A stretch of 28,437 bases of DNA from a virus (Duplodnaviria; Heunggongvirae; Uroviricota; Caudoviricetes). Position 1 is the stretch's first letter; each line of letters starts with the position of its first letter. The notes under the pieces were generated by a model. It worked only from the letters and a program-made list of their open reading frames with translations, did not search any database and had not been told where the DNA came from. The stretch is taken from positions 1 through 28,437 of the IMG/VR virus record IMGVR_UViG_3300026224_000011; one strand, written 5' to 3'. The translations under genes and the position numbers were made by a program. Of the stretch, positions 1 through 28,437 are shown piece by piece.

Positions 1-95
1 AGGACTGGTTGCGCGAAGTGATCGTGAAGCTTAATGACTGGCCGTCAAACCGTGTGCATGAACTGCTGCCCTGGAACTGCTCAACTGTAAAATAA
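1..95 (+). other. 3' end of an unidentified plus-strand ORF entering from upstream of the window
   Basis: Plus frame 3 is open from the window edge to TAA at 93-95 (...DWLREVIVKLNDWPSNRVHELLPWNCSTVK); the other plus frames are closed; family not recognised. Confidence 0.3.
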
Positions 96-123
96 TCCTT
101 ACGCTACGTACTTCTCGGGGCGC

Positions 124-729
124 TTACATCGGCGTGGCGCTCACGGTCAGACCACCTGCCGTGGTGGATGCTGACAGGGTGATGTCATTCCCCCAGGCAC
201 CTTTGGTCCGGGTGGTGACCGTCAGCTGAGAGGCTTCCGATTGGTATTCCCCCGTAACCAGAAGCGAAGGCGTCTGCGTCATTGCTTCCACCAGTGCCGG
301 AATGATTTTCGACGGTCCATCACCGGTTTCCACATCCACCGAAACCTGCTCACCGGCAACCCATACCGACAGTGTTCCGCTGCTGATTGCCGTACCGTTG
401 ACGGTAACTGCGCCGGTTGCTGCCTTTCCTGCGCCACTGTCTGCAATACCGATAACATCCAGTTGCAGATAGCTGTTGGCATTAATGGCCGCGCGCGCCA
501 TTGCAGCGGCCAGCGAACCGGCCCCGAAATACAAATCCGCTTCGTCTTCGGAATACACGGAAACGGCATTCAGGGGCGTGGCGGTGCCGCCTGACAGCAT
601 CGGGCCAATCACCAGAACACGCTGTTCGTTACCCGGCAGCGTGTTAACGGCCAGCCGGGTATTAAACTCAAAATGCACACCGGGCTTACGGATGCCGCCC
701 GAAATGGTGTCAAACTGAATTTCACTCAT
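124..729 (-). pseudogene. tail sheath protein (Mu gpL-like), N-terminal 201 codons only
   Basis: ATG at 729 with AGGTGG RBS; sheath-like N-terminus; TAA at 124-126, and no sheath-like continuation in any frame of 1-123. Confidence 0.45.
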
Positions 730-15653: not shown

Positions 15654-16150
15654 TACGCACCTCCTTTGGCGTCAATATTTACAGCCTGGCAAGCCTCGTT
15701 GAGCACCCAGTCAACCGCGTCTTTCCATGCTCCGGTTTCGACTAGCGGATTCTCACACTTTACCTGTTCATAGAAACGCACTGCTTTAACTAGTCCTTCC
15801 GGTACTACCGATGCTGGCGGGGCAGCATAAAGCTCATGCATTCCATCAGGTAGCGAGTGACCTACATACTCACTGAACCCATCAACACGCATGTATCCAT
15901 CTTCAACAATGAATGACGCTACTGGCAAAGCTACCTCCCGTGCCTCCAGTTCTTCTGCCCACTCCCGAAGCCCTTCAATCTCACCATTACGAGCTATCAG
16001 ATCGCGACACAGTCTTTCGTTTTCATCCAGCAACGCCTGCACAACCTCCGGCGTAGCAGCAGCATGAAAAGCCTGTAGGTTCTGCCACGTCGTATCCCCC
16101 TTCGCGGCCACTGCCACCTCACGCAGTGCCTGATAGTTAATCTCACTCAC
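15653..16150 (-). CDS. Ea22-like family protein (tentative)
   Basis: Start placed at GTG 16148-16150, 6 nt after AAGGAGG; VSEINYQALREV... N-terminus and coiled-coil segment recall ead/Ea22-like prophage proteins. Confidence 0.4.
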   Translation of the reverse strand: MSEINYQALREVAVAAKGDTTWQNLQAFHAAATPEVVQALLDENERLCRDLIARNGEIEGLREWAEELEAREVALPVASFIVEDGYMRVDGFSEYVGHSLPDGMHELYAAPPASVVPEGLVKAVRFYEQVKCENPLVETGAWKDAVDWVLNEACQAVNIDAKGGA

Positions 16151-19141: not shown

Positions 19142-19381
19142 TTACTGCCATACGACGGTGCAGCCGTCGATACAGGACGTTTTCACCACGCGGCGCAGGC
19201 CGCTGAATGTCTGGATGATTTCCGTTACCGGCCATACAGGACCACCCACGGGCGGGCAGGCATAAACCACAGGTAAACGGTGATGCTGCCCCGTTACACG
19301 ACCGCCAGTGGTGTGGATGGCCACACGGGCACGGGAACGGACGGCGTTAATGGTCTGCTTGTCCATCGTCTTGTTCTCCAT
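19142..19381 (-). CDS. hypothetical protein following the B gene
   Basis: 79-aa ORF whose ATG overlaps the B stop (ATGA); Cys pairs CPP...CIDGC; no family recognised. Confidence 0.3.
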   Translation of the reverse strand: MENKTMDKQTINAVRSRARVAIHTTGGRVTGQHHRLPVVYACPPVGGPVWPVTEIIQTFSGLRRVVKTSCIDGCTVVWQ

Positions 19382-20274
19382 CAGTGAATTAACATTTCTG
19401 CGAATTTATCAATGGCCTGCACACTGACCGGTGCATCGCTGATATCACAAATCCGGTACACACCGCGCGCCAGTTTGAAGAGGCGGCGGGCATTACCCAG
19501 CGAGCGTACGTAAAGCGCCTCGCTGATTTCCGGTTCTGCTGCTTCCGGCATCAGCCCGGTGGCTATCTGGTTAAAATCTTCCTGCGCCAGCGTATCGCCC
19601 AGGTTAAGCGCCAGCGCCACACGGCTGTATAACTGGGCGAACTCACCGCGACGTCCCTTGAGGTTAATCAGAAGGCGTGGCATACCCGCCAGGACAATCC
19701 CGATACCCGCTTTGTCATGCAGACGGCGCAGAACCTCCAGTGCGCGATAGGGGAGCAGTTCAGCCTCGTCCACCATCAGCAGGCGACCGGAATCACGCAG
19801 TTCTCGCACACATGCATCAATCAGTTCGTGGATATTGCCGCGAACTTTTACCCCCAGCTGGCGGCACAGCTCCTCAAGCAGTGTTCTGGCTGTATAGCCC
19901 GGGTCGGCTTCAATCAGGACCGCATCCCGGTTTCTGGCGGCGTATTCACGCAGAATCATTGTTTTGCCAAGACCTGCCGCGCCATACAGTACGCAGATTT
20001 CACATTCCAGGTGAGCATAGGCCAACACCTCCAGTCCTTTGGCAGCCATACCGGTGGCAACAAATTTCGCTTTAATACGGCGGCTGTTTTCCTTTTCCCG
20101 CTCACGGGTCACAAAGGCGAAAATGCGTTCTTCAATATCAGCCATATCGCCCTGATATTTACCCTGTAAATACTGGTTGATAACGGCGCTGCTACGACCA
20201 ATAGCACGGGCGACGTGGGTTTGCGTATAGCCGCGACGGGCCATTACGTCATTTAATTGCGTAATTAAACTCAT
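19381..20274 (-). CDS. MuB-like transposition ATPase (AAA+)
   Basis: 297 aa; N-terminal HTH-like region; Walker A GAAGLGKT; Walker B LLMVDEAE; directly downstream of the transposase. Confidence 0.8.
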   Translation of the reverse strand: MSLITQLNDVMARRGYTQTHVARAIGRSSAVINQYLQGKYQGDMADIEERIFAFVTREREKENSRRIKAKFVATGMAAKGLEVLAYAHLECEICVLYGAAGLGKTMILREYAARNRDAVLIEADPGYTARTLLEELCRQLGVKVRGNIHELIDACVRELRDSGRLLMVDEAELLPYRALEVLRRLHDKAGIGIVLAGMPRLLINLKGRRGEFAQLYSRVALALNLGDTLAQEDFNQIATGLMPEAAEPEISEALYVRSLGNARRLFKLARGVYRICDISDAPVSVQAIDKFAEMLIH

Positions 20275-20292: not shown

Positions 20293-22335
20293 TTAACGGT
20301 TGTTTGTGCCGTTTTTCTTTAAATTGCGTTCGCGTTCAGATGCGAATAAATAAAGTTCTTCTTTTTCCTTTTTCTCCGGGCGCTCCAGTCCATATCCCAG
20401 ATTAAAGTCAGGCTTCTGCGTAATGGCCGGGGTAAGCTCGCGTTTAGCTTCTTCGATTTTCTGCGTGGCCCGTGCAATGCGGCCCCTGACGCGTTTCTCC
20501 AGTTTTTGCTCGATAACTGGTTTAGCGAAGGCATCAACCTTGTTACCGTTCCAGATGGCATCGCAGATATAAGAGCCATCAGCCCGCCGGACAATGACGC
20601 TGTTTGCATCATGAATATCGTAACTGACCCTGACTTCATTCCCGTGCTCTGCGGCCAGCTCATATGAGTAATAAATATTGTTGAATAACTGAATTTCCCC
20701 GCGAAATGTTTTGCGCGTCACTTCCGGTCTGAACATTTCATGCAGTTCTTCCGGCGACAGCATGTCGATTTCAGCCTTTTGCTCTTTTATCAGTTTCCGG
20801 CGATACGCTGCCGGGCTGTAATATTCGCCATCCTCTTTGCGAGGAAGGCTGCTGTGTGGCCGGTTGTTATAGCGTCTGACCTCCAGCTCTATGGCTGCCA
20901 TCAGTTGCTCAAAGGTAGGGATTTCATCCCTCGCCTTAACCTGCCGTTTTGTCAGCTCTTTCCCTTTGTGGGTGGCCTTAATGGCTGACTGCATAATCCG
21001 TTGCTGCATCATTACGGTTTCCTTGTCTGCATCCCTTGCGCAGTACGTCTGGAAACTCAGAGCCACGTCTTTGGGTATTCCTTTGTTTGCCCGTTCAATC
21101 ACCCCGCGCCCCTGCGGGTTACCTGGTATCCCCGTGTGATGTTCCACACCCAGACGGGGCAGAATCCCGGTAATATCGGCATCAAGCACCCGGTTTTTTT
21201 CGCCGCCCCCGTTATCGGAGTAATAAATCAGCGGTATCCCGTGCTGTGCCATGCCGTAACGCAACGCATCAGCAACAGCTATCACGTTCTCCGACAGGGA
21301 CAGTGACCAGCCCACAACAAAGCGTTGCCCCGCATCCATAACCAGCGTCACTTCTGGCCGGAAAATATTGCCGGTCAGGGGGTTAAACGCGGTCATTTTC
21401 ATACAGTGACCATCCCCGACCCATACCGCATTAACCGGTAATGATGTCCAGTCGCGCCGCACAAAGGGATTGAGCGAACGCCAGGCTGAACCGGTGGAGC
21501 GGAAACGCTCTTTAACAATCACCGGGACGCTGCTTAACACCCGTCTTACTGCGTGAACTGAAGGCAGTGCCGCCAGCATTCCCGCATCATTCGCGTGTTT
21601 TTCATGCCACCAGGCTGAAAACTCACGATACGCATATTCAACAGTCGGGCGCTTCCATGAGCGATAGAACATAAAGAAATCGCTCAACCACCAGACCTGC
21701 TCCCACGGTGTTCCCTTATGATGACCGGGAGCCAGTAACGCCAGTAACTGATTGGCATCACCGCGCGCCATCACCCAGCTGGAGTACCAGCTATCCAGGC
21801 TGCCGGTGCTGACACCGGTTCGCTTTCCCTGACGTGCATTTGCAGTATTCGCTGCTTCGATAATGCGGTCAGGTAACGCCCCCATGCGCACACCATCAAC
21901 GATGTGCTTTAAAGCGGCCTTCCTGGTCATTCCGGCATACTCGCGCAGCTTATGCACTTCAGTAGCCAGCAATATCCGCGCATCAGCGATGGCCTTTTGC
22001 TTGTCGGTCAGTGACTGGACTTCGCGTAATGCCAGCTCCGGGCATTTGACCATCACCTCCAGTTCATCGCGAACGGCGACGTTTTTAACTGCTTTCTGCT
22101 CAACTACGGCGGGCAGTTGTGCATCTTCCAGGACCTGATGAGTCAGGCGCTTACGTAAAACTTTCTGCGCTTCAGCGGGCAGGCAGTCGATGTGATACTC
22201 GAATGCTTTGGTGCCTTCGCGCTTGCGCTTCCATTCTGGGTGCGTCTCTGTGATCCGATTGAGCGTCCAGCGCACCCCCTGAACTGTACCGGGCAAACCA
22301 GGAAGACCGGCCAGCTCATTGGCTGAATAAAACAT
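20293..22335 (-). CDS. MuA-like DDE transposase
   Basis: 680 aa; Mu A-like size and architecture; ATG overlaps the ner stop (TAATG). Confidence 0.85.
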   Translation of the reverse strand: MFYSANELAGLPGLPGTVQGVRWTLNRITETHPEWKRKREGTKAFEYHIDCLPAEAQKVLRKRLTHQVLEDAQLPAVVEQKAVKNVAVRDELEVMVKCPELALREVQSLTDKQKAIADARILLATEVHKLREYAGMTRKAALKHIVDGVRMGALPDRIIEAANTANARQGKRTGVSTGSLDSWYSSWVMARGDANQLLALLAPGHHKGTPWEQVWWLSDFFMFYRSWKRPTVEYAYREFSAWWHEKHANDAGMLAALPSVHAVRRVLSSVPVIVKERFRSTGSAWRSLNPFVRRDWTSLPVNAVWVGDGHCMKMTAFNPLTGNIFRPEVTLVMDAGQRFVVGWSLSLSENVIAVADALRYGMAQHGIPLIYYSDNGGGEKNRVLDADITGILPRLGVEHHTGIPGNPQGRGVIERANKGIPKDVALSFQTYCARDADKETVMMQQRIMQSAIKATHKGKELTKRQVKARDEIPTFEQLMAAIELEVRRYNNRPHSSLPRKEDGEYYSPAAYRRKLIKEQKAEIDMLSPEELHEMFRPEVTRKTFRGEIQLFNNIYYSYELAAEHGNEVRVSYDIHDANSVIVRRADGSYICDAIWNGNKVDAFAKPVIEQKLEKRVRGRIARATQKIEEAKRELTPAITQKPDFNLGYGLERPEKKEKEELYLFASERERNLKKNGTNNR

Positions 22336-22571
22336 TACGCCGCCTTACTGGCATACCGGCTTGGCCAGATCTCCGCAGGTTCCACACCAATAGCATCGGC
22401 TATGATGCGTTCATATTTAGGGCATGAGCGATACAGTGCATTTTTTAAAGAGTCTTTTTTTAGACCAGCGCGTTCAGAAAGTTCACGCAATGTAAAACCT
22501 TTGGTGTGCACAGCGGCAACGATGTACTCGCGGTGCCAGTCTTTGTTCATTACTTCATTTCTAACCATCAT
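22335..22571 (-). CDS. Ner-like DNA-binding regulator
   Basis: C-terminal ...EIWPSRY... and NKDWHR match Mu Ner; start placed at ATG 22569-22571; the ORF-track extension to 22709 is rejected. Confidence 0.75.
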   Translation of the reverse strand: MMVRNEVMNKDWHREYIVAAVHTKGFTLRELSERAGLKKDSLKNALYRSCPKYERIIADAIGVEPAEIWPSRYASKAA

Positions 22572-22739
22572 TAGGTTACCCTTAAAAGTTATCCGTGCGG
22601 ATAACACCGCCGTGTTATCCCTTCGGATATAAGTATTGATCCACAAATAGAAAATTACAAGCTTTCTTTTCTTTCTTTGGTGAAAAGAAAGTCTTTTTGA
22701 AGAAAGCACATGTAAATCAACACGTTAGAAGGAAAGAAA
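22572..22739. promoter_or_regulatory. ner-c divergent control region with operator-like repeats
   Basis: Overlapping inverted repeats ttatccg tg cggataa (22589-22604) and ggataacac cgcc gtgttatcc (22599-22620); CTTTC/GAAAG repeat array 22661-22735. Confidence 0.5.
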
Positions 22740-23390
22740 ATGAGTAAACAAATCGCTGATGATTTTTCCTTTTCTCAGGATAGAAAAGAAAGCATTCAAG
22801 ACAGAATCAAACAACTGATTGGCACCAGGAGCCTGCGTAAAGCCACCTCAGACTGGGGATTACCGTACTCGACCATAAATAACTACTTTGAAAAAGGCAC
22901 GACACCTGGCCTAAATGTGGTCGCTACAATAGCAAAATTAGAGAATGTATCACTGGAATGGCTGGTCTACGGTGAGAACAGAAGTGTTCCAATGGTAGAA
23001 AAATCAAGGGTGACTACAGAAGACGTTAACCGCCCCGATACAAGTATTGTTGACGAAATACTAAGACGAGCCGCTCCAGAAGATAGAGAGCGTCTTATTG
23101 ATATGCTTTGTTGTATTGGTATCAAAGGAGTCCTGGAACGCCTACAACAACCCACCAGGCAAGCGAAACAGGCCTACAACGACCTAGACGAACAGGAGAA
23201 TGCCATCAGAAGCCTGAACATCAGGGAATCGCTAAAAGACGCCATATGTATGGCATTAGATGGTAACGAAGAAATTGACAAAGAGATTTTGCGCCGCATC
23301 GAATCTCATATACGAGCTAGGTCGCCAGGTGGTCAGACCGTTGCCACGCCGGAGCAAGAAACGAAGCCTGTAAACAAGAAATCAGCATAA
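22740..23390 (+). CDS. prophage repressor (c-like)
   Basis: 216 aa; ATG after AAGGAAAG RBS; HTH-like N-terminal region; divergent from ner as in Mu; AT-rich. Confidence 0.65.
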   Translation: MSKQIADDFSFSQDRKESIQDRIKQLIGTRSLRKATSDWGLPYSTINNYFEKGTTPGLNVVATIAKLENVSLEWLVYGENRSVPMVEKSRVTTEDVNRPDTSIVDEILRRAAPEDRERLIDMLCCIGIKGVLERLQQPTRQAKQAYNDLDEQENAIRSLNIRESLKDAICMALDGNEEIDKEILRRIESHIRARSPGGQTVATPEQETKPVNKKSA

Positions 23391-23702
23391 GCGCCTCGTT
23401 TTGGCGGGGCGTATGCTGTTAGCTAATCAGCAATAACCACAACAAAACCGAACACAACAGATGAGAACAAATTGAGGAAAACGGGCAAGGATAAAACACT
23501 TTTTAAAAGCATTTAAAACCCGTTAAGTTTGTAGCAGAACCAGATCAAAAGCGCCCAGAAAAAAGCGCAAAAAAAAGCGTTTTTGGTCATTTCTCACAAA
23601 TCCGCCCAGAATCACACTAAATCACCACACCCCGCGCCACACAAGGCTTGCAGGTTCTACCAGGCTGCACGAACTCCGCCCAGAATTGATCACCACCCCA
23701 CA
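23391..23702. repeat. prophage c-end terminal region (attL-equivalent) with candidate transposase-binding repeats
   Basis: cgcccagaa at 23552-23560 and ccgcccagaat at 23602-23612 and 23677-23687; terminal dinucleotide CA at 23701-23702. Confidence 0.55.
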
Positions 23703-24724
23703 ATCTCGGTGGGAACGCCCATCATGTTGTAGGAAACAGCGGAGAACCAGTCGAGATTGGGGAACATCTTTTTGCTCTCCCACATCACCGTTTCCAGGCG
23801 ATCGGCAATGTTGTACATCTTCAGCGAGCCGCCTTCCTGCGAGAGCTGCTTCGCCACACGCTTGATCACCTGATGGCGCGGGTCGGCGATGGTATAAACC
23901 GGATGGCCAAAACCAATCACCACTTCTTTGTTTTCCACGCGCTTGCGGATATCCGCTTCGGCTTCGTCCGGCGTTTCGTAGCGTTGCTGGATCTCCAGTG
24001 ACACTTCATTCGCCCCGCCGTGCTTCGGCCCGCGCAGTGCACCAATCGCGCCGATAATGGCTGAATACATATCAGAGCCGGTGCCCGCAATCACCCGGCT
24101 GGTAAAGGTGGAGGCGTTAAACTCATGCTCGGCGTACAGCACCAGCGAAATTTGCATCGCCTTTTCCCAACTTTGCGACGGCTTTTCACCATGCAGCAGA
24201 TGCAGGAAGTGACCGCCGATAGAGTCGTCATCGGTTTCCGGCTGGATGCGTTCGCCGTTGTGGCTGTAGTGATACCAGTAGAGAAGAATCGAACTCAGCG
24301 ACGCCAACAGTTTGTCGGCAATATCCCGCGCGCCGGAGACGGTGTGCCCCTCTTTTTCCGGCAGCGTGCAGCCGAGCGCGGAAACGCCGGTGCGCATAAC
24401 ATCCATCGGGTGCGACGCCGCAGGTAAAGCCTCCAGCACGGTACGCACGTTAGCCGGTAAACCGCGCAGGGCTTTCAGTTTCGTTTTGTAAGCGGCGAGT
24501 TCGTCACGGGTCGGCAGTTTGCCGTGGATCAGCAGATGCGCCACTTCTTCAAATTCGCAATGTTCTGCGAGATCGAGAATATCGTAGCCGCGATAGTGCA
24601 GGTCGTTGCCGCTTTTGCCTACGGTACAAAGCGCGGTGTTACCCGCCGGAACGCCAGAAAGTGCCACAGATTTTTTTGGTTTAATGACATGGGTACTGTT
24701 TTGCAGGATCGTTGTGTCGCTCAT
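23690..24724 (-). pseudogene. prpC: 2-methylcitrate synthase, C-terminally truncated by prophage insertion
   Basis: 344-aa ORF matches PrpC through ...NMMGVPTE, then IVGW-stop encoded by phage DNA; native PrpC is about 389 aa (recalled). Confidence 0.9.
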
Positions 24725-24749
24725 GTTGTCCTCGTCATTGTTATCATTT

Positions 24750-24870
24750 GTAGGGTCGAGATTGTTGTCGGATGCGACGCCATGCGTCTTATCCGACCTA
24801 CAGTTCAGTACACCTCGTAGGCCTGATAAGTCGCGTCAGCGGCGCATCAGGCATCGGTTGTCGAATACAA
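24750..24870. repeat. REP/BIME-type palindromic repeats between prpB and prpC
   Basis: ...tgtcggatgcgacgccatgcgtcttatccgacctaca... and inverted ...gtaggcctgataagtcgcgtcagcggcgcatcaggca... match the REP consensus. Confidence 0.55.
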
Positions 24871-24885
24871 CCACCAGACGTTTGT

Positions 24886-25776
24886 TTATTTCGCCTGGCT
24901 ACGGGCAAACAGGTCGTCGAGCTTCTCTTCGTACTGGTAGTAGTTGATGCTTTCGTACAACTCGTTACGGGTCTGCATGGTGTCGATCACGCTTTTCTGC
25001 GTGCCTTCCTGGCGCAGGATGTTGTAGACATGTTCAGCGGCGCGGTTCATGGCGCGGAATGCTGAAAGCGGGTACAGCGCCATTGCGACATGGGCGCTGC
25101 GTAATTCATCGGTGGTGAACAGGGGCGTGGCGCCAAATTCGGTAATGTTGGCGAGGATTGGCACCTGCACCGCATCGGCAAACTGGCGGTACATGGCGAG
25201 TTCAGTAATCGCCTCCGGGAACAGCATCTCGGCACCGGCTTCAACATAGGCTCGCGCGCGTTCGATCGCGCCGTCCAGACCTTCCACTGCCAGCGCATCG
25301 GTGCGCGCCATGATCACAAAATCAGGATCGGTTTTCGCATCCACCGCCGCGCGGATCCGATCAACCATCTCCTCTTTCGAGACGATCGCTTTGTTCGGAC
25401 GATGACCGCAGCGTTTCGCGCCGATCTGATCTTCAATATGCAATCCTGCCGCACCGGCTTTAATCATCGATTTCACAGTACGCGCCACGTTAAAGGCCGA
25501 AGAGCCAAAGCCGATATCGGCATCAACCAGCAGCGGCAGCGAGCAAACGTCGGTGATACGCCGAATATCGGTCAGCACATCATCAAGGGTAGAAATACCG
25601 AGATCGGGTAGCCCCAGCGAACCTGCCGCCACGCCACCACCGGAGAGATAAATCGCCTGATATCCGGCACGCTGCGCCAACAACGCATGGTTGGCGTTAA
25701 TGGTGCCAACAATTTGCAACGGAGTTTCTTTGGAGAGTGCGGCGCGAAACGCTTTACCTGGAGAGTGTAGAGACAT
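24886..25776 (-). CDS. prpB: 2-methylisocitrate lyase
   Basis: 296-aa ORF recognised as PrpB; upstream of prpC and divergent from prpR. Confidence 0.92.
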
Positions 25777-25822
25777 AGCCCATCCTTTGTTATCAACTTG
25801 TTATTTTCGTTGATAAACACAA

Positions 25823-25838
25823 AGCAAGGGCTATGCCA
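25823..25838 (-). promoter_or_regulatory. sigma-54 promoter of the prp operon (-24/-12)
   Basis: Minus strand reads TGGCAT-AGCCC-TTGCT, matching TGGCAC-N5-TTGCW with GG-N10-GC spacing; about 45 bp upstream of prpB. Confidence 0.6.
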
Positions 25839-25913
25839 CAATTGATAAACTCAAAATAACCAATACATTTCAATTTGTTAACAAAAACACTCTTACTTAA
25901 TCTGCAAATATGC

Positions 25914-25971
25914 GTTTCAGTTAACGTTTCAGGCAATGTTTCACCGTGTTTCATTGCAACAATTATGAAAC
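25914..25971. promoter_or_regulatory. GTTTCA repeat array (candidate PrpR enhancer sites)
   Basis: GTTTCA at 25914, 25926, 25937 and 25946, with inverted TGAAAC at 25966-25971; 80-150 bp upstream of the sigma-54 promoter. Confidence 0.4.
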
Positions 25972-26014
25972 AAGACTAAACCCAATATTCGGTTTCTTAA
26001 TTCTTTGGGGTGCT

Positions 26015-27601
26015 ATGGCACATCCACCACGGCTGAACGACGATAAACCCATTTTTTGGACGGTATCAGTGACGCGCTTGTTCGAACTGTTTCGCGATAT
26101 CAGCCTTGAGTTTAATCACCTGGCGAACATAACGCCTATCCAGCTTGGCTTTGAAAAAGCGGTGGCCTACATCCGCAAAAAACTGGCAAGTGAACGCTGC
26201 GACGCTATCATCGCCGCTGGCTCTAACGGCGCGTACCTGAAAAGCCGCCTGTCAGTGCCCGTTATTTTGATTAAACCGAGCGGCTTTGATGTGTTACAGG
26301 CGCTGGCAAAAGCCGGAAAACTTACCTCATCGATTGGCGTCGTTACTTATCAGGAAACCATTCCGGCACTGGTGGCGTTTCAAAAAACCTTTAATCTGCG
26401 TCTCGACCAACGTAGTTACATCACCGAAGAAGACGCACGCGGGCAGATTAACGAGCTAAAAGCTAGCGGCACCGAAGCCGTGGTCGGTGCCGGGCTGATT
26501 ACCGATCTGGCAGAAGAAGCCGGAATGACCGGAATTTTTATCTATTCCGCTGCCACCGTGCGCCAGGCGTTCAGCGATGCGCTGGATATGACACGCATGT
26601 CTCTAAGGCATAACGCCCAGAACACTACCCGCAACGCCCTGCGTACTCGTTACGTTTTGAGCGATATGCTTGGTCAATCGCCACAGATGGAACAAGTGCG
26701 GCAAACCATTTTGCTCTATGCCCGATCCAGTGCGGCGGTGCTGATTCAGGGAGAAACGGGAACCGGTAAAGAGCTGGCGGCTCAGGCGATACATCGGGAA
26801 TACTTTGCCTGTCATGACGCTCGCCACGGTAAAAAATCACATCCGTTTGTTGCCGTTAACTGCGGAGCGATTGCCGAATCATTGCTGGAAGCGGAGCTAT
26901 TTGGCTATGAGGAAGGGGCATTTACCGGCTCGCGACGCGGAGGTCGCGCCGGGCTGTTCGAAATTGCCCACGGCGGCACGCTGTTTCTTGATGAAATTGG
27001 CGAAATGCCGCTGCCTTTGCAGACTCGCCTGCTGCGGGTGCTGGAAGAAAAAGAGGTCACTCGCGTCGGCGGACATCAGCCTGTTCCGGTAAATGTGCGG
27101 GTCATCAGCGCCACCCACTGCAATCTGGAAGAGGATATGCAGCAAGGACGTTTTCGCCGTGATCTGTTTTATCGACTGAGTATTTTACGTCTGCAATTGC
27201 CGCCACTGCGCGAGCGGGGTGCGGATATTCTGCCGTTGGCGGAAAGCTTTTTAAAAGTGTCTCTGGCGGCGCTCTCCGCCCCATTTTCTGCTGCGTTACG
27301 CGAGGGGTTAAATACCTGCCAGGTGGTTTTATTGCACTATGAGTGGCCGGGAAATATTCGTGAACTCCGCAATATGATGGAGCGACTGGCGCTATTTTTA
27401 AGTGTGGAACCGACGCCGGATTTAACGCCGCAGTTTTTGCAACGGCTACTGCCGGAATTAGCCCACGAGTCGGCGAAAATTACCGCCTCTCCCTTGCTGA
27501 CACCCCAACAGGCACTGGAGAAATTTAATGGTGATAAAACAGCAGCGGCGAATTATTTAGGCATCAGCCGAACGACGTTCTGGCGGCGGCTGAAAAATTA
27601 A
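26015..27601 (+). CDS. prpR: sigma-54-dependent propionate catabolism activator
   Basis: 528 aa from ATG 26015 ([12 protein letters not shown]...); AAA+ sigma-54 interaction domain ([13 protein letters not shown]); C-terminal HTH. Confidence 0.92.
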
Positions 27602-27604
27602 ATT

Positions 27605-27637
27605 GCCGGATGCGGTGTGACCCCCTATCCGGCCTAC
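27605..27637. repeat. REP element downstream of prpR
   Basis: gccggatgcggtgtgaccccctatccggcctac matches the REP palindromic unit. Confidence 0.55.
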
Positions 27638-27709
27638 AAAATCATGAATTTCAATATATTGCATTCACCGATAGACGTGCACATCGGGCATATTTACATG
27701 GCTTCAGAA

Positions 27710-27985
27710 TTACTTCTTCTTATAAATATTTGCCGTGCCGTGGATCTTATTGTCAGTCTGACCGGAGGTCAGTACCAACACATCAGCACCTTTTTCATCC
27801 GCTTTTTTGATTAAATCTTCTTTTGCATCTGCAGTCGACATTTCATTACTTGTTGAAATATCACCTATTTTTTCATATTGCGATTCAACCTTTTCAAATT
27901 CCGCTTTAGTCATCAATTCAGCGGCATAGACGTTTGTGACAACAAAAGCTAACGCACCAACTAAGAGCTTAGTTCCAGTTTTCAT
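27710..27985 (-). CDS. yahO: small periplasmic protein YahO
   Basis: 91 aa from ATG 27985 (GGAG RBS); signal peptide then ...[23 protein letters not shown]...; ORF-track start at 28039 rejected. Confidence 0.85.
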
Positions 27986-28310: not shown

Positions 28311-28437
28311 GGTGATGCTGCCAACTTACTGATTTAGTGTATGATGGTGTTTTTGAGGTGCTCCAGTGGCTTCTGTTTCTATCAGCTGTCCCTCCTGTTC
28401 AGCTACTGACGGGGTGGTGCGTAACGGCAAAAGCACC
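28311..28437 (+). mobile_element. IS1 left end (partial, runs off the window)
   Basis: GGTGATGCTGCCAACTTACTGAT inverted repeat at 28311, followed by the characteristic IS1 sequence. Confidence 0.9.
28366..28437 (+). CDS. insA: IS1 InsA, N-terminal fragment
   Basis: GTG at 28366 encodes MASVSISCPSCSATDGVVRNGKST... Confidence 0.8.
   Translation, partial: MASVSISCPSCSATDGVVRNGKST

Follow-up and report, generated by a model that had tools for sequence, protein, structure and literature searches.

Phage Mu (Muvirus mu, NC_000929.1) has a left end with the gene order repressor, ner, A and B, in which A and B encode a DDE transposase and its AAA+ partner, and its ends read TG...CA with three sites at each (L1 set apart from L2-L3, R1-R2 adjacent). 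Its head genes include those for the portal, F, protease I and gpT, and its genome of ~36-39 kb inserts into many genes. The Mu c-type repressor shares a DNA-binding domain with the transposase N-terminus, and Mu-type elements do not excise precisely and generate adjacent deletions and inversions. Virion DNA of transposable phages is flanked by variable host sequence, a product of headful packaging from integrated copies. Mu duplicates 5 bp of its target and B3 6 bp, and transposable prophages are recognised by a '5/6 bp duplication' (PMC8705779). A 4-bp scar is already on record in the database for a related Mu-like phage, the E. coli transposable prophage Mu_JNE122137 inside the Stx1a phage Stx1_JNE122137, for which GenBank LC727895.1 annotates a 4-bp duplication (AGAG) that was confirmed here from the sequence. 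By transposase, the isolates nearest to the prophage considered below are Pseudomonas phage VW-6B (49 per cent identity), Yersinia phage vB_YpM_Tongde (46 per cent) and Klebsiella phage ST405-OXA48phi1.1 (45 per cent), followed by Mannheimia phage 3927AP2 (40.5 per cent) and Haemophilus phage SuMu (40 per cent); all of these align over the full length of the transposase, fall in the same MuA-type clade and are Mu-like transposable myoviruses.

The window (the whole stretch of DNA that was analysed, 28,437 nt) appears to be an entire contig bounded by an IS66-family end and IS1, since the longest contig on record for the truncated PrpC has exactly this length. It contains the left part of a Mu-like prophage joined to an interrupted prpC gene; in the lineage that led to Escherichia sp. 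TW09231, a member of cryptic clade III, a Mu-like phage very likely integrated by DDE transposition into prpC codon 341. The prophage and its early genes are placed as follows:

127-23702, minus strand: left 23.6 kb of a Mu-like prophage, early region to head genes (88-92 per cent coverage at ~95 per cent identity in 38 complete E. coli genomes)
19381-20274, minus strand: MuB-type AAA+ ATPase, 297 aa, directly downstream of the transposase (Pfam AAA_22 and TniB)
20293-22335, minus strand: MuA-type DDE transposase, 680 aa (Pfam HTH_Tnp_Mu_1, E 3.8e-10; Mu-transpos_C, E 5.7e-17; rve below cut-off)
22335-22571, minus strand: Ner-like early regulator, 78 aa (237-nt CDS), as annotated at the same place in relatives; the longest open reading frame extends to 22709
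22740-23390, plus strand: CI-type HTH repressor, 216 aa (Pfam Phage_CI_repr), reading toward the phage left end

Early and late genes of the prophage are transcribed on the minus strand, and the gene order from the terminus, with the repressor pointing outward and ner, A and B following inward, is that of the Mu left end. The transposase combines a Mu end-binding N-terminal domain with a Mu C-terminal domain and is adjoined by the MuB-type AAA+ ATPase, both of which are expected of a Mu-like phage; its putative catalytic residues D308, D334 and E414 align to D269/D336/E392 of MuA. The long Ner-like open reading frame (22335-22709) has a Pfam HTH_35 match of the winged-helix type at residues 57-122, and to the left of B the minus strand carries Pfam matches to Portal_Mu, Phage_Mu_F, Mu-like_Pro (protease I) and Mu-like_gpT (the major head protein). 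The left-end gene order, the DDE transposase with its AAA+ partner, the TG...CA ends with three sites each, the insertion into many genes, the head genes and the genome size given above for Mu are common to Mu and the family to which this prophage belongs.

The proteins are nevertheless distant from those of Mu: identity to MuA is only 21 per cent for the transposase (616 aa aligned), and identity to Mu B is 32 per cent for the B protein (214 aa aligned). Although the repressor gene is transcribed toward the left end in both phages, the window repressor is of the CI type and is not a homologue of Mu c, to which it has no significant similarity. Mu also differs in leaving a 5-bp duplication, against 4 bp in the window family, and the window prophage has a DNA methyltransferase gene upstream of terL. 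A megablast comparison with 50,697 phage records matched neither Mu nor D108 nor SfMu, and the nucleotide relatedness, 5-bp duplication and Mu c-type repressor expected of the genus Muvirus are all absent. Mu_JNE122137, the described prophage with a 4-bp duplication, has a transposase 44 per cent identical to that of the window but is of a different lineage: its end repeats are of the GGTATCAAA type, its right terminus is ...TA rather than ...CA, and megablast finds no similarity between the two.

The methyltransferase gene (N6_N4_Mtase) lies at 9955-10695 on the minus strand, between a DUF1804 gene and terL. It is found in most relatives and is absent from the copy in strain 47-1826, and is therefore variable cargo. 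Among the 50,697 records of isolated phages the only nucleotide-level match is an ead/Ea22-like segment of ~200 bp at 15452-15668, which has 87-90 per cent identity with phiV10, P1, Stx and further lambdoid phages and indicates module exchange in the semi-essential early region.

The left terminus carries an array of repeats of the kind expected for transposase binding:

23553-23702, minus strand: attL, comprising three TTCTGGGC cores (minus strand) and the terminal CA
23678-23685, minus strand: L1 core, 18-25 nt from the end
23604-23611, minus strand: L2 core, 92-99 nt inward from the terminus
23553-23560, minus strand: L3 core, 143-150 nt inward from the terminus

The preliminary description had reported a phage-type sequence that ends in CA and bears three repeats within 150 bp of that end. 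The terminus does read ...CCCCACA, with the terminal dinucleotide CA at 23701-23702. The count of three stands for the 8-mer core GCCCAGAA, which occurs five times on the plus strand of the 28.4-kb window, three of these within 150 bp of the phage terminus; for the full 10/11-mer it does not, as only two copies of CCGCCCAGAAT are exact (23602-23612 and 23676-23686) and the third repeat, around 23551-23561 with its core at 23553-23560, is the variant GCGCCCAGAAA.

At the attR of related prophages the cores lie 18-25 and 40-47 nt from the end, with an inverted core at 67-74, so that the first site is equidistant (18-25 nt) from the left terminus here and from the right terminus of the relatives, a recurrence well beyond chance. 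The left end in the window reads TGTGGGG... on the minus strand and the right ends of relatives read TGTAAC..., the ends being of the 5'-TG...CA-3' form, with asymmetric left and right arrays of putative transposase-binding repeats. The arrangement of the cores resembles L1-L3 and R1-R3 of Mu.

Two terminator-like hairpins at 23551-23584 overlap the L3 site. One of them, on the minus strand at 23568-23551 and followed by a T-rich tail, could block read-through from prpBC into the prophage; five terminator-like sites were found where 3.0 were expected, and they may be due to chance.

This prophage is one of a family that is common in E. coli though little studied. In total 38 complete E. coli genomes match the 23.7-kb phage part over at least 80 per cent of its length at ~95 per cent identity, and among the matches listed every related prophage ends at query base 23702. 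Those genomes annotate a Mu transposase, terL, a DUF935 portal, a protease and gpT, and the exact transposase protein is present on 22 contigs. Among them are the copies in eutC of EPEC E2348/69 (NC_011601.1) and in ycgB of strain M8; 36 further genomes make up the rest. All share with the window copy the terminus, the cores and the gene order, and their transposase and B protein are equal in length to its own. They occupy other insertion sites, in E. coli rather than clade III hosts, and only the window copy has its sheath gene interrupted by an IS66-family element. The semi-essential region and the tail-fibre end hold accessory genes that vary among copies of the family.

Seven complete relatives, 35.2-39.0 kb in length and with ends TGTAACTTCGCG...CCCCACA, were examined at their insertion sites. 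These were seven different sites (ycgB, eutC, hyfB, ypdF, a molybdopterin oxidoreductase gene and two genes of other prophages), and the flanking repeats were CATT, AGTG, GATG, AGCG, CAAA, CAAG and TTCG, a 4-bp target duplication in every case (7/7). For four of the relatives the empty site was checked in K-12, where exactly 4 bp are common to both flanks. The relatives thus integrate at many sites, leaving a short target duplication and showing no attachment-site specificity. A 5-bp duplication concealed by shifted termini was considered and rejected, since no shift gives a 5-bp match in the seven relatives and the overlap at the empty sites is exactly 4 bp. It follows that the repeat to be expected at prpC is not the 5-bp ATCTC proposed in the preliminary description but its first four bases:

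23703-23706, no strand: ATCT, predicted copy of the target duplication, corresponding to sense-strand nt 1019-1022 of prpC (expectation taken from 7/7 relatives)

Within the library of papers searched, none was found on this prophage family or on 4-bp duplication by Mu-like phages. The family probably represents an uncharacterised lineage of Escherichia transposable phages, marked by a CI-type repressor, a transposase 21 per cent identical to MuA and a transpososome with an apparent 4-nt stagger. Because the family leaves 4 bp, pipelines that delimit transposable prophages by a 5- or 6-bp duplication will place its borders wrongly, although such prophages are common in E. coli. The event in prpC is an ordinary insertion of a known prophage type, the 4-bp duplication of the family being its sole mildly unusual point.

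The prpRBCDE propionate catabolism locus comprises a divergent prpR and a single operon of prpB, prpC, prpD and prpE with a sigma-54 promoter. On the other side of the terminus the window holds the following part of it, with only the 5' 87 per cent of prpC; prpD and prpE lie beyond the contig:

23703-24724, minus strand: prpC', the first 1022 of 1170 nt; the frame runs 13 nt into the phage end, to a stop codon at 23690-23692
24886-25776, minus strand: prpB, methylisocitrate lyase, 296 aa, intact (open reading frame; Pfam PEP_mutase/ICL on the identical gene of the ERR273781 contig; homology to annotated E. coli prpB)
25823-25838, minus strand: sigma-54-type promoter motif TGGCAT-N5-TTGCT upstream of prpB, read from the sequence
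26015-27601, plus strand: prpR, sigma-54 activator, 528 aa, intact (Pfam PrpR_N, Sigma54_activat and HTH_8 on identical ERR273781 sequence)

A three-way DNA alignment of the window, an uninterrupted prpC and the end of the E. coli M8 prophage places the exact break between phage and prpC at 23702/23703, with prpC homology from 23703 rightward and homology to the M8 Mu-like prophage up to 23702. In the same alignment, the M8 match that runs 15 nt beyond the junction proved to be a chance similarity of the two flanks. The minus-strand open reading frame at 23690-24724 translates to 344 aa, and 339 of its first 340 residues are identical to PrpC of E. coli strain 7/2 (389 aa), the sole difference being Q191 versus H. 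After ...GVPTE the window reads IVGW and a stop, where the reference protein goes on with MFTPLFVIARVTGW...; prpC is retained as nt 1-1022, the break falls inside codon 341, and the last 49 residues of E. coli PrpC are lost. The initial reading of this locus, a PrpC match as far as ...GVPTE followed by IVGW-stop with the switch at 23702/23703, is borne out by the translation and by alignment to E. coli PrpC and to the uninterrupted gene, and the related prophages end at the same base. Its attribution of the interruption to a Mu-type end is likewise supported by the Pfam domains, the gene order, the TG...CA terminus with its repeated sites and the near-identical prophages in other genes.

The junction is not confined to one assembly. 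A separately assembled contig from ERR273781 has the same junction with one mismatch over 4,818 nt, so that it is not an artefact of a single assembly, and an ENA contig of 29,652 nt also carries it. It was found in none of 5,426 genomes. On the phage side the ERR273781 contig extends for 210 bp and then stops, and its single mismatch (A/C at 23498) lies 5 nt from that edge; the mismatch and the contig edge at 23493-23498 could reflect a graph branch, if that genome has another copy of the phage end with a slightly different sequence.

In the mechanism that we propose, the transposase would bind the L1-L3 and R1-R3 sites and the CA 3'-OH ends would be joined to target phosphates staggered by 4 nt, after which repair would duplicate ATCT (23703-23706). 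An uninterrupted prpC of clade III (E. ruysiae) is predicted to read ...GAACATCTCGG... at the target site, and the other end of the insertion is predicted as ...AAACGCGAAGTTACA joined to AGATGTTCAC... (in shorter form, ...GAAGTTACA joined to AGATGTTCAC...), beyond which prpC codons 341-389 and then prpD and prpE would follow. At least 35 kb of prophage plus IS would then lie between the sigma-54 promoter and the two latter genes, cutting them off from it, and a later insertion of an IS66-family element in the tail-sheath gene would have crippled the prophage.

The two edges of the contig and the sheath gene bear on that last step:

1-126, plus strand: 3' end of an IS66-family element, with the transposase C-terminus ...ELLPWNCSTVK* and the terminal inverted repeat
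124-729, minus strand: truncated tail-sheath gene, 201 aa against 473 by alignment to the 473-aa sheath of relatives, its stop codon supplied by the IS66 end
28311-28437, plus strand: left end of IS1, at the right contig edge downstream of yahO, with many matches per E. coli genome

In 1,340 E. coli genomes, features named 'IS66 family transposase' match bases 1-126 at 98.4 per cent, related prophages align only from base 127, and contigs of this lineage all stop at the same IS66 end. The segment at 28311-28437 we take to be an IS1 terminus. Where the window has this IS1 the ERR273781 contig has an empty site, and as the same prpC junction occurs both with and without IS1, at least two non-identical genomes or subpopulations share the insertion. 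The break in the sheath gene probably leaves the prophage tail-defective and unable to form infectious particles; the repressor, transposase and B genes look intact. Since Mu-type excision is imprecise, the prpC mutation should be effectively fixed, and the element probably persists as a fixed mutation, no longer as an active phage.

The host can be assigned from both halves of the window. The truncated sheath, the transposase and the repressor proteins all carry names from Escherichia sp. TW09231, the 201-aa sheath product being identical to a 'hypothetical protein, partial [Escherichia sp. TW09231]'. AEJW is listed as TW09231, a cryptic clade III strain that came from a Michigan freshwater beach (PMC7716201). 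The chromosomal part (window 23703-27964) is 94.9 per cent identical to E. coli in prpC and 89.7 per cent in prpB-prpR-yahO, values that fit cryptic Escherichia clade III, and the prophage is ~95 per cent identical to the E. coli copies.

The main competitor to simple insertion is a rearrangement, mediated by transposition or by an IS, of which the junction would mark only one edge, with the 3' end of prpC and prpDE deleted or placed elsewhere and no target duplication formed; it could be an adjacent deletion or inversion from Mu-type replicative transposition, or a deletion that began at the IS66 element within the prophage. Adjacent deletions and inversions are within the repertoire of Mu-type elements, the contig stops at the IS66 end inside the prophage so that the prophage only presumably continues beyond it, and the right junction was not recovered by pattern scans, by look-up of junction open reading frames or by a homology search with a chimeric query. 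The pattern scans carry no weight either way: the predicted right junction (with a 4- or 5-bp duplication) and the known left junction were both absent from genome_contigs, metagenome_contigs and viral_contigs, and as these collections lack even the left junction, the source genome is absent from them and the right-junction scans are uninformative. Exact look-up of ten candidate right-junction open reading frames found only the bare 49-aa PrpC remainder, and the chimeric phage-end/PrpC query returned PrpC fragments only, none with a phage-derived N-terminus. All seven relatives, on the other hand, are simple insertions with intact 4-bp duplications, and a related prophage that has an IS66-family insertion in its tape-measure gene keeps both of its ends. 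A rearrangement therefore seems unlikely, though it deserves more weight than the two remaining readings.

One of these makes the junction an assembly chimera between a prophage contig end and prpC, as might be suspected of a draft short-read assembly that is repeat-rich and has IS elements at both contig edges. The same junction in the ERR273781 contig, which lacks IS1, and in the ENA contig of 29,652 nt speaks against this, as does the coincidence of the break with a conserved phage terminus common to 38 genomes, and such a chimera is highly improbable. The other supposes no insertion at all, the PrpC of this lineage naturally ending ...EIVGW with ordinary chromosome alongside. The open reading frame itself is the sole point in its favour, and the preliminary description had named a reference PrpC with that ending as one observation that would overturn its reading. 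E. coli PrpC instead continues for 49 further conserved residues through which every solved homologue aligns, and the DNA left of 23702 is 95-98 per cent identical to Mu-like prophages at other loci. The three-way alignment, the family terminus at 23702 and the comparison with reference PrpC together rule out a natural ...EIVGW end, to which we assign next to no credence. Insertion of the Mu-like phage into prpC codon 341 is thus retained as the preferred reading.

The Pfam Citrate_synt match on the truncated PrpC spans profile positions 2-327 of 357, and the protein does not have a complete citrate-synthase fold with its C-terminal segment. Solved citrate and methylcitrate synthases, Salmonella PrpC (3o8j) among them, all align through the lost region, to residue 388. 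The C-terminal helices that are lost carry two substrate-binding arginines in citrate synthases (the R in ARVTGW and the R in IIRPS), and by this comparison the truncated PrpC should be inactive; the 344-aa 'PrpC' is best annotated as the product of a pseudogene. The prpB promoter is sigma-54/PrpR dependent in the prp operon of E. coli and Salmonella, and phage promoters could in principle drive prpDE. The methylcitrate cycle has presumably been lost in the strain, and the insertion predicts no growth on propionate and possible sensitivity to it. The locus is a natural case of a transposable phage inactivating a gene by insertion, here in a clade of environmental Escherichia.

The 49-aa PrpC remainder found by exact look-up was also considered as evidence of the right junction and was set aside, as it is explained by an independent nonsense allele in E. 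coli. A 339-aa PrpC ending ...GVPT (the E340* allele) occurs on 23 E. coli contigs, and a 49-aa open reading frame starting at M341 of PrpC on 26. The E340* stop is one codon from the insertion in the window, which is taken as coincidence, yet loss of prpC recurs.
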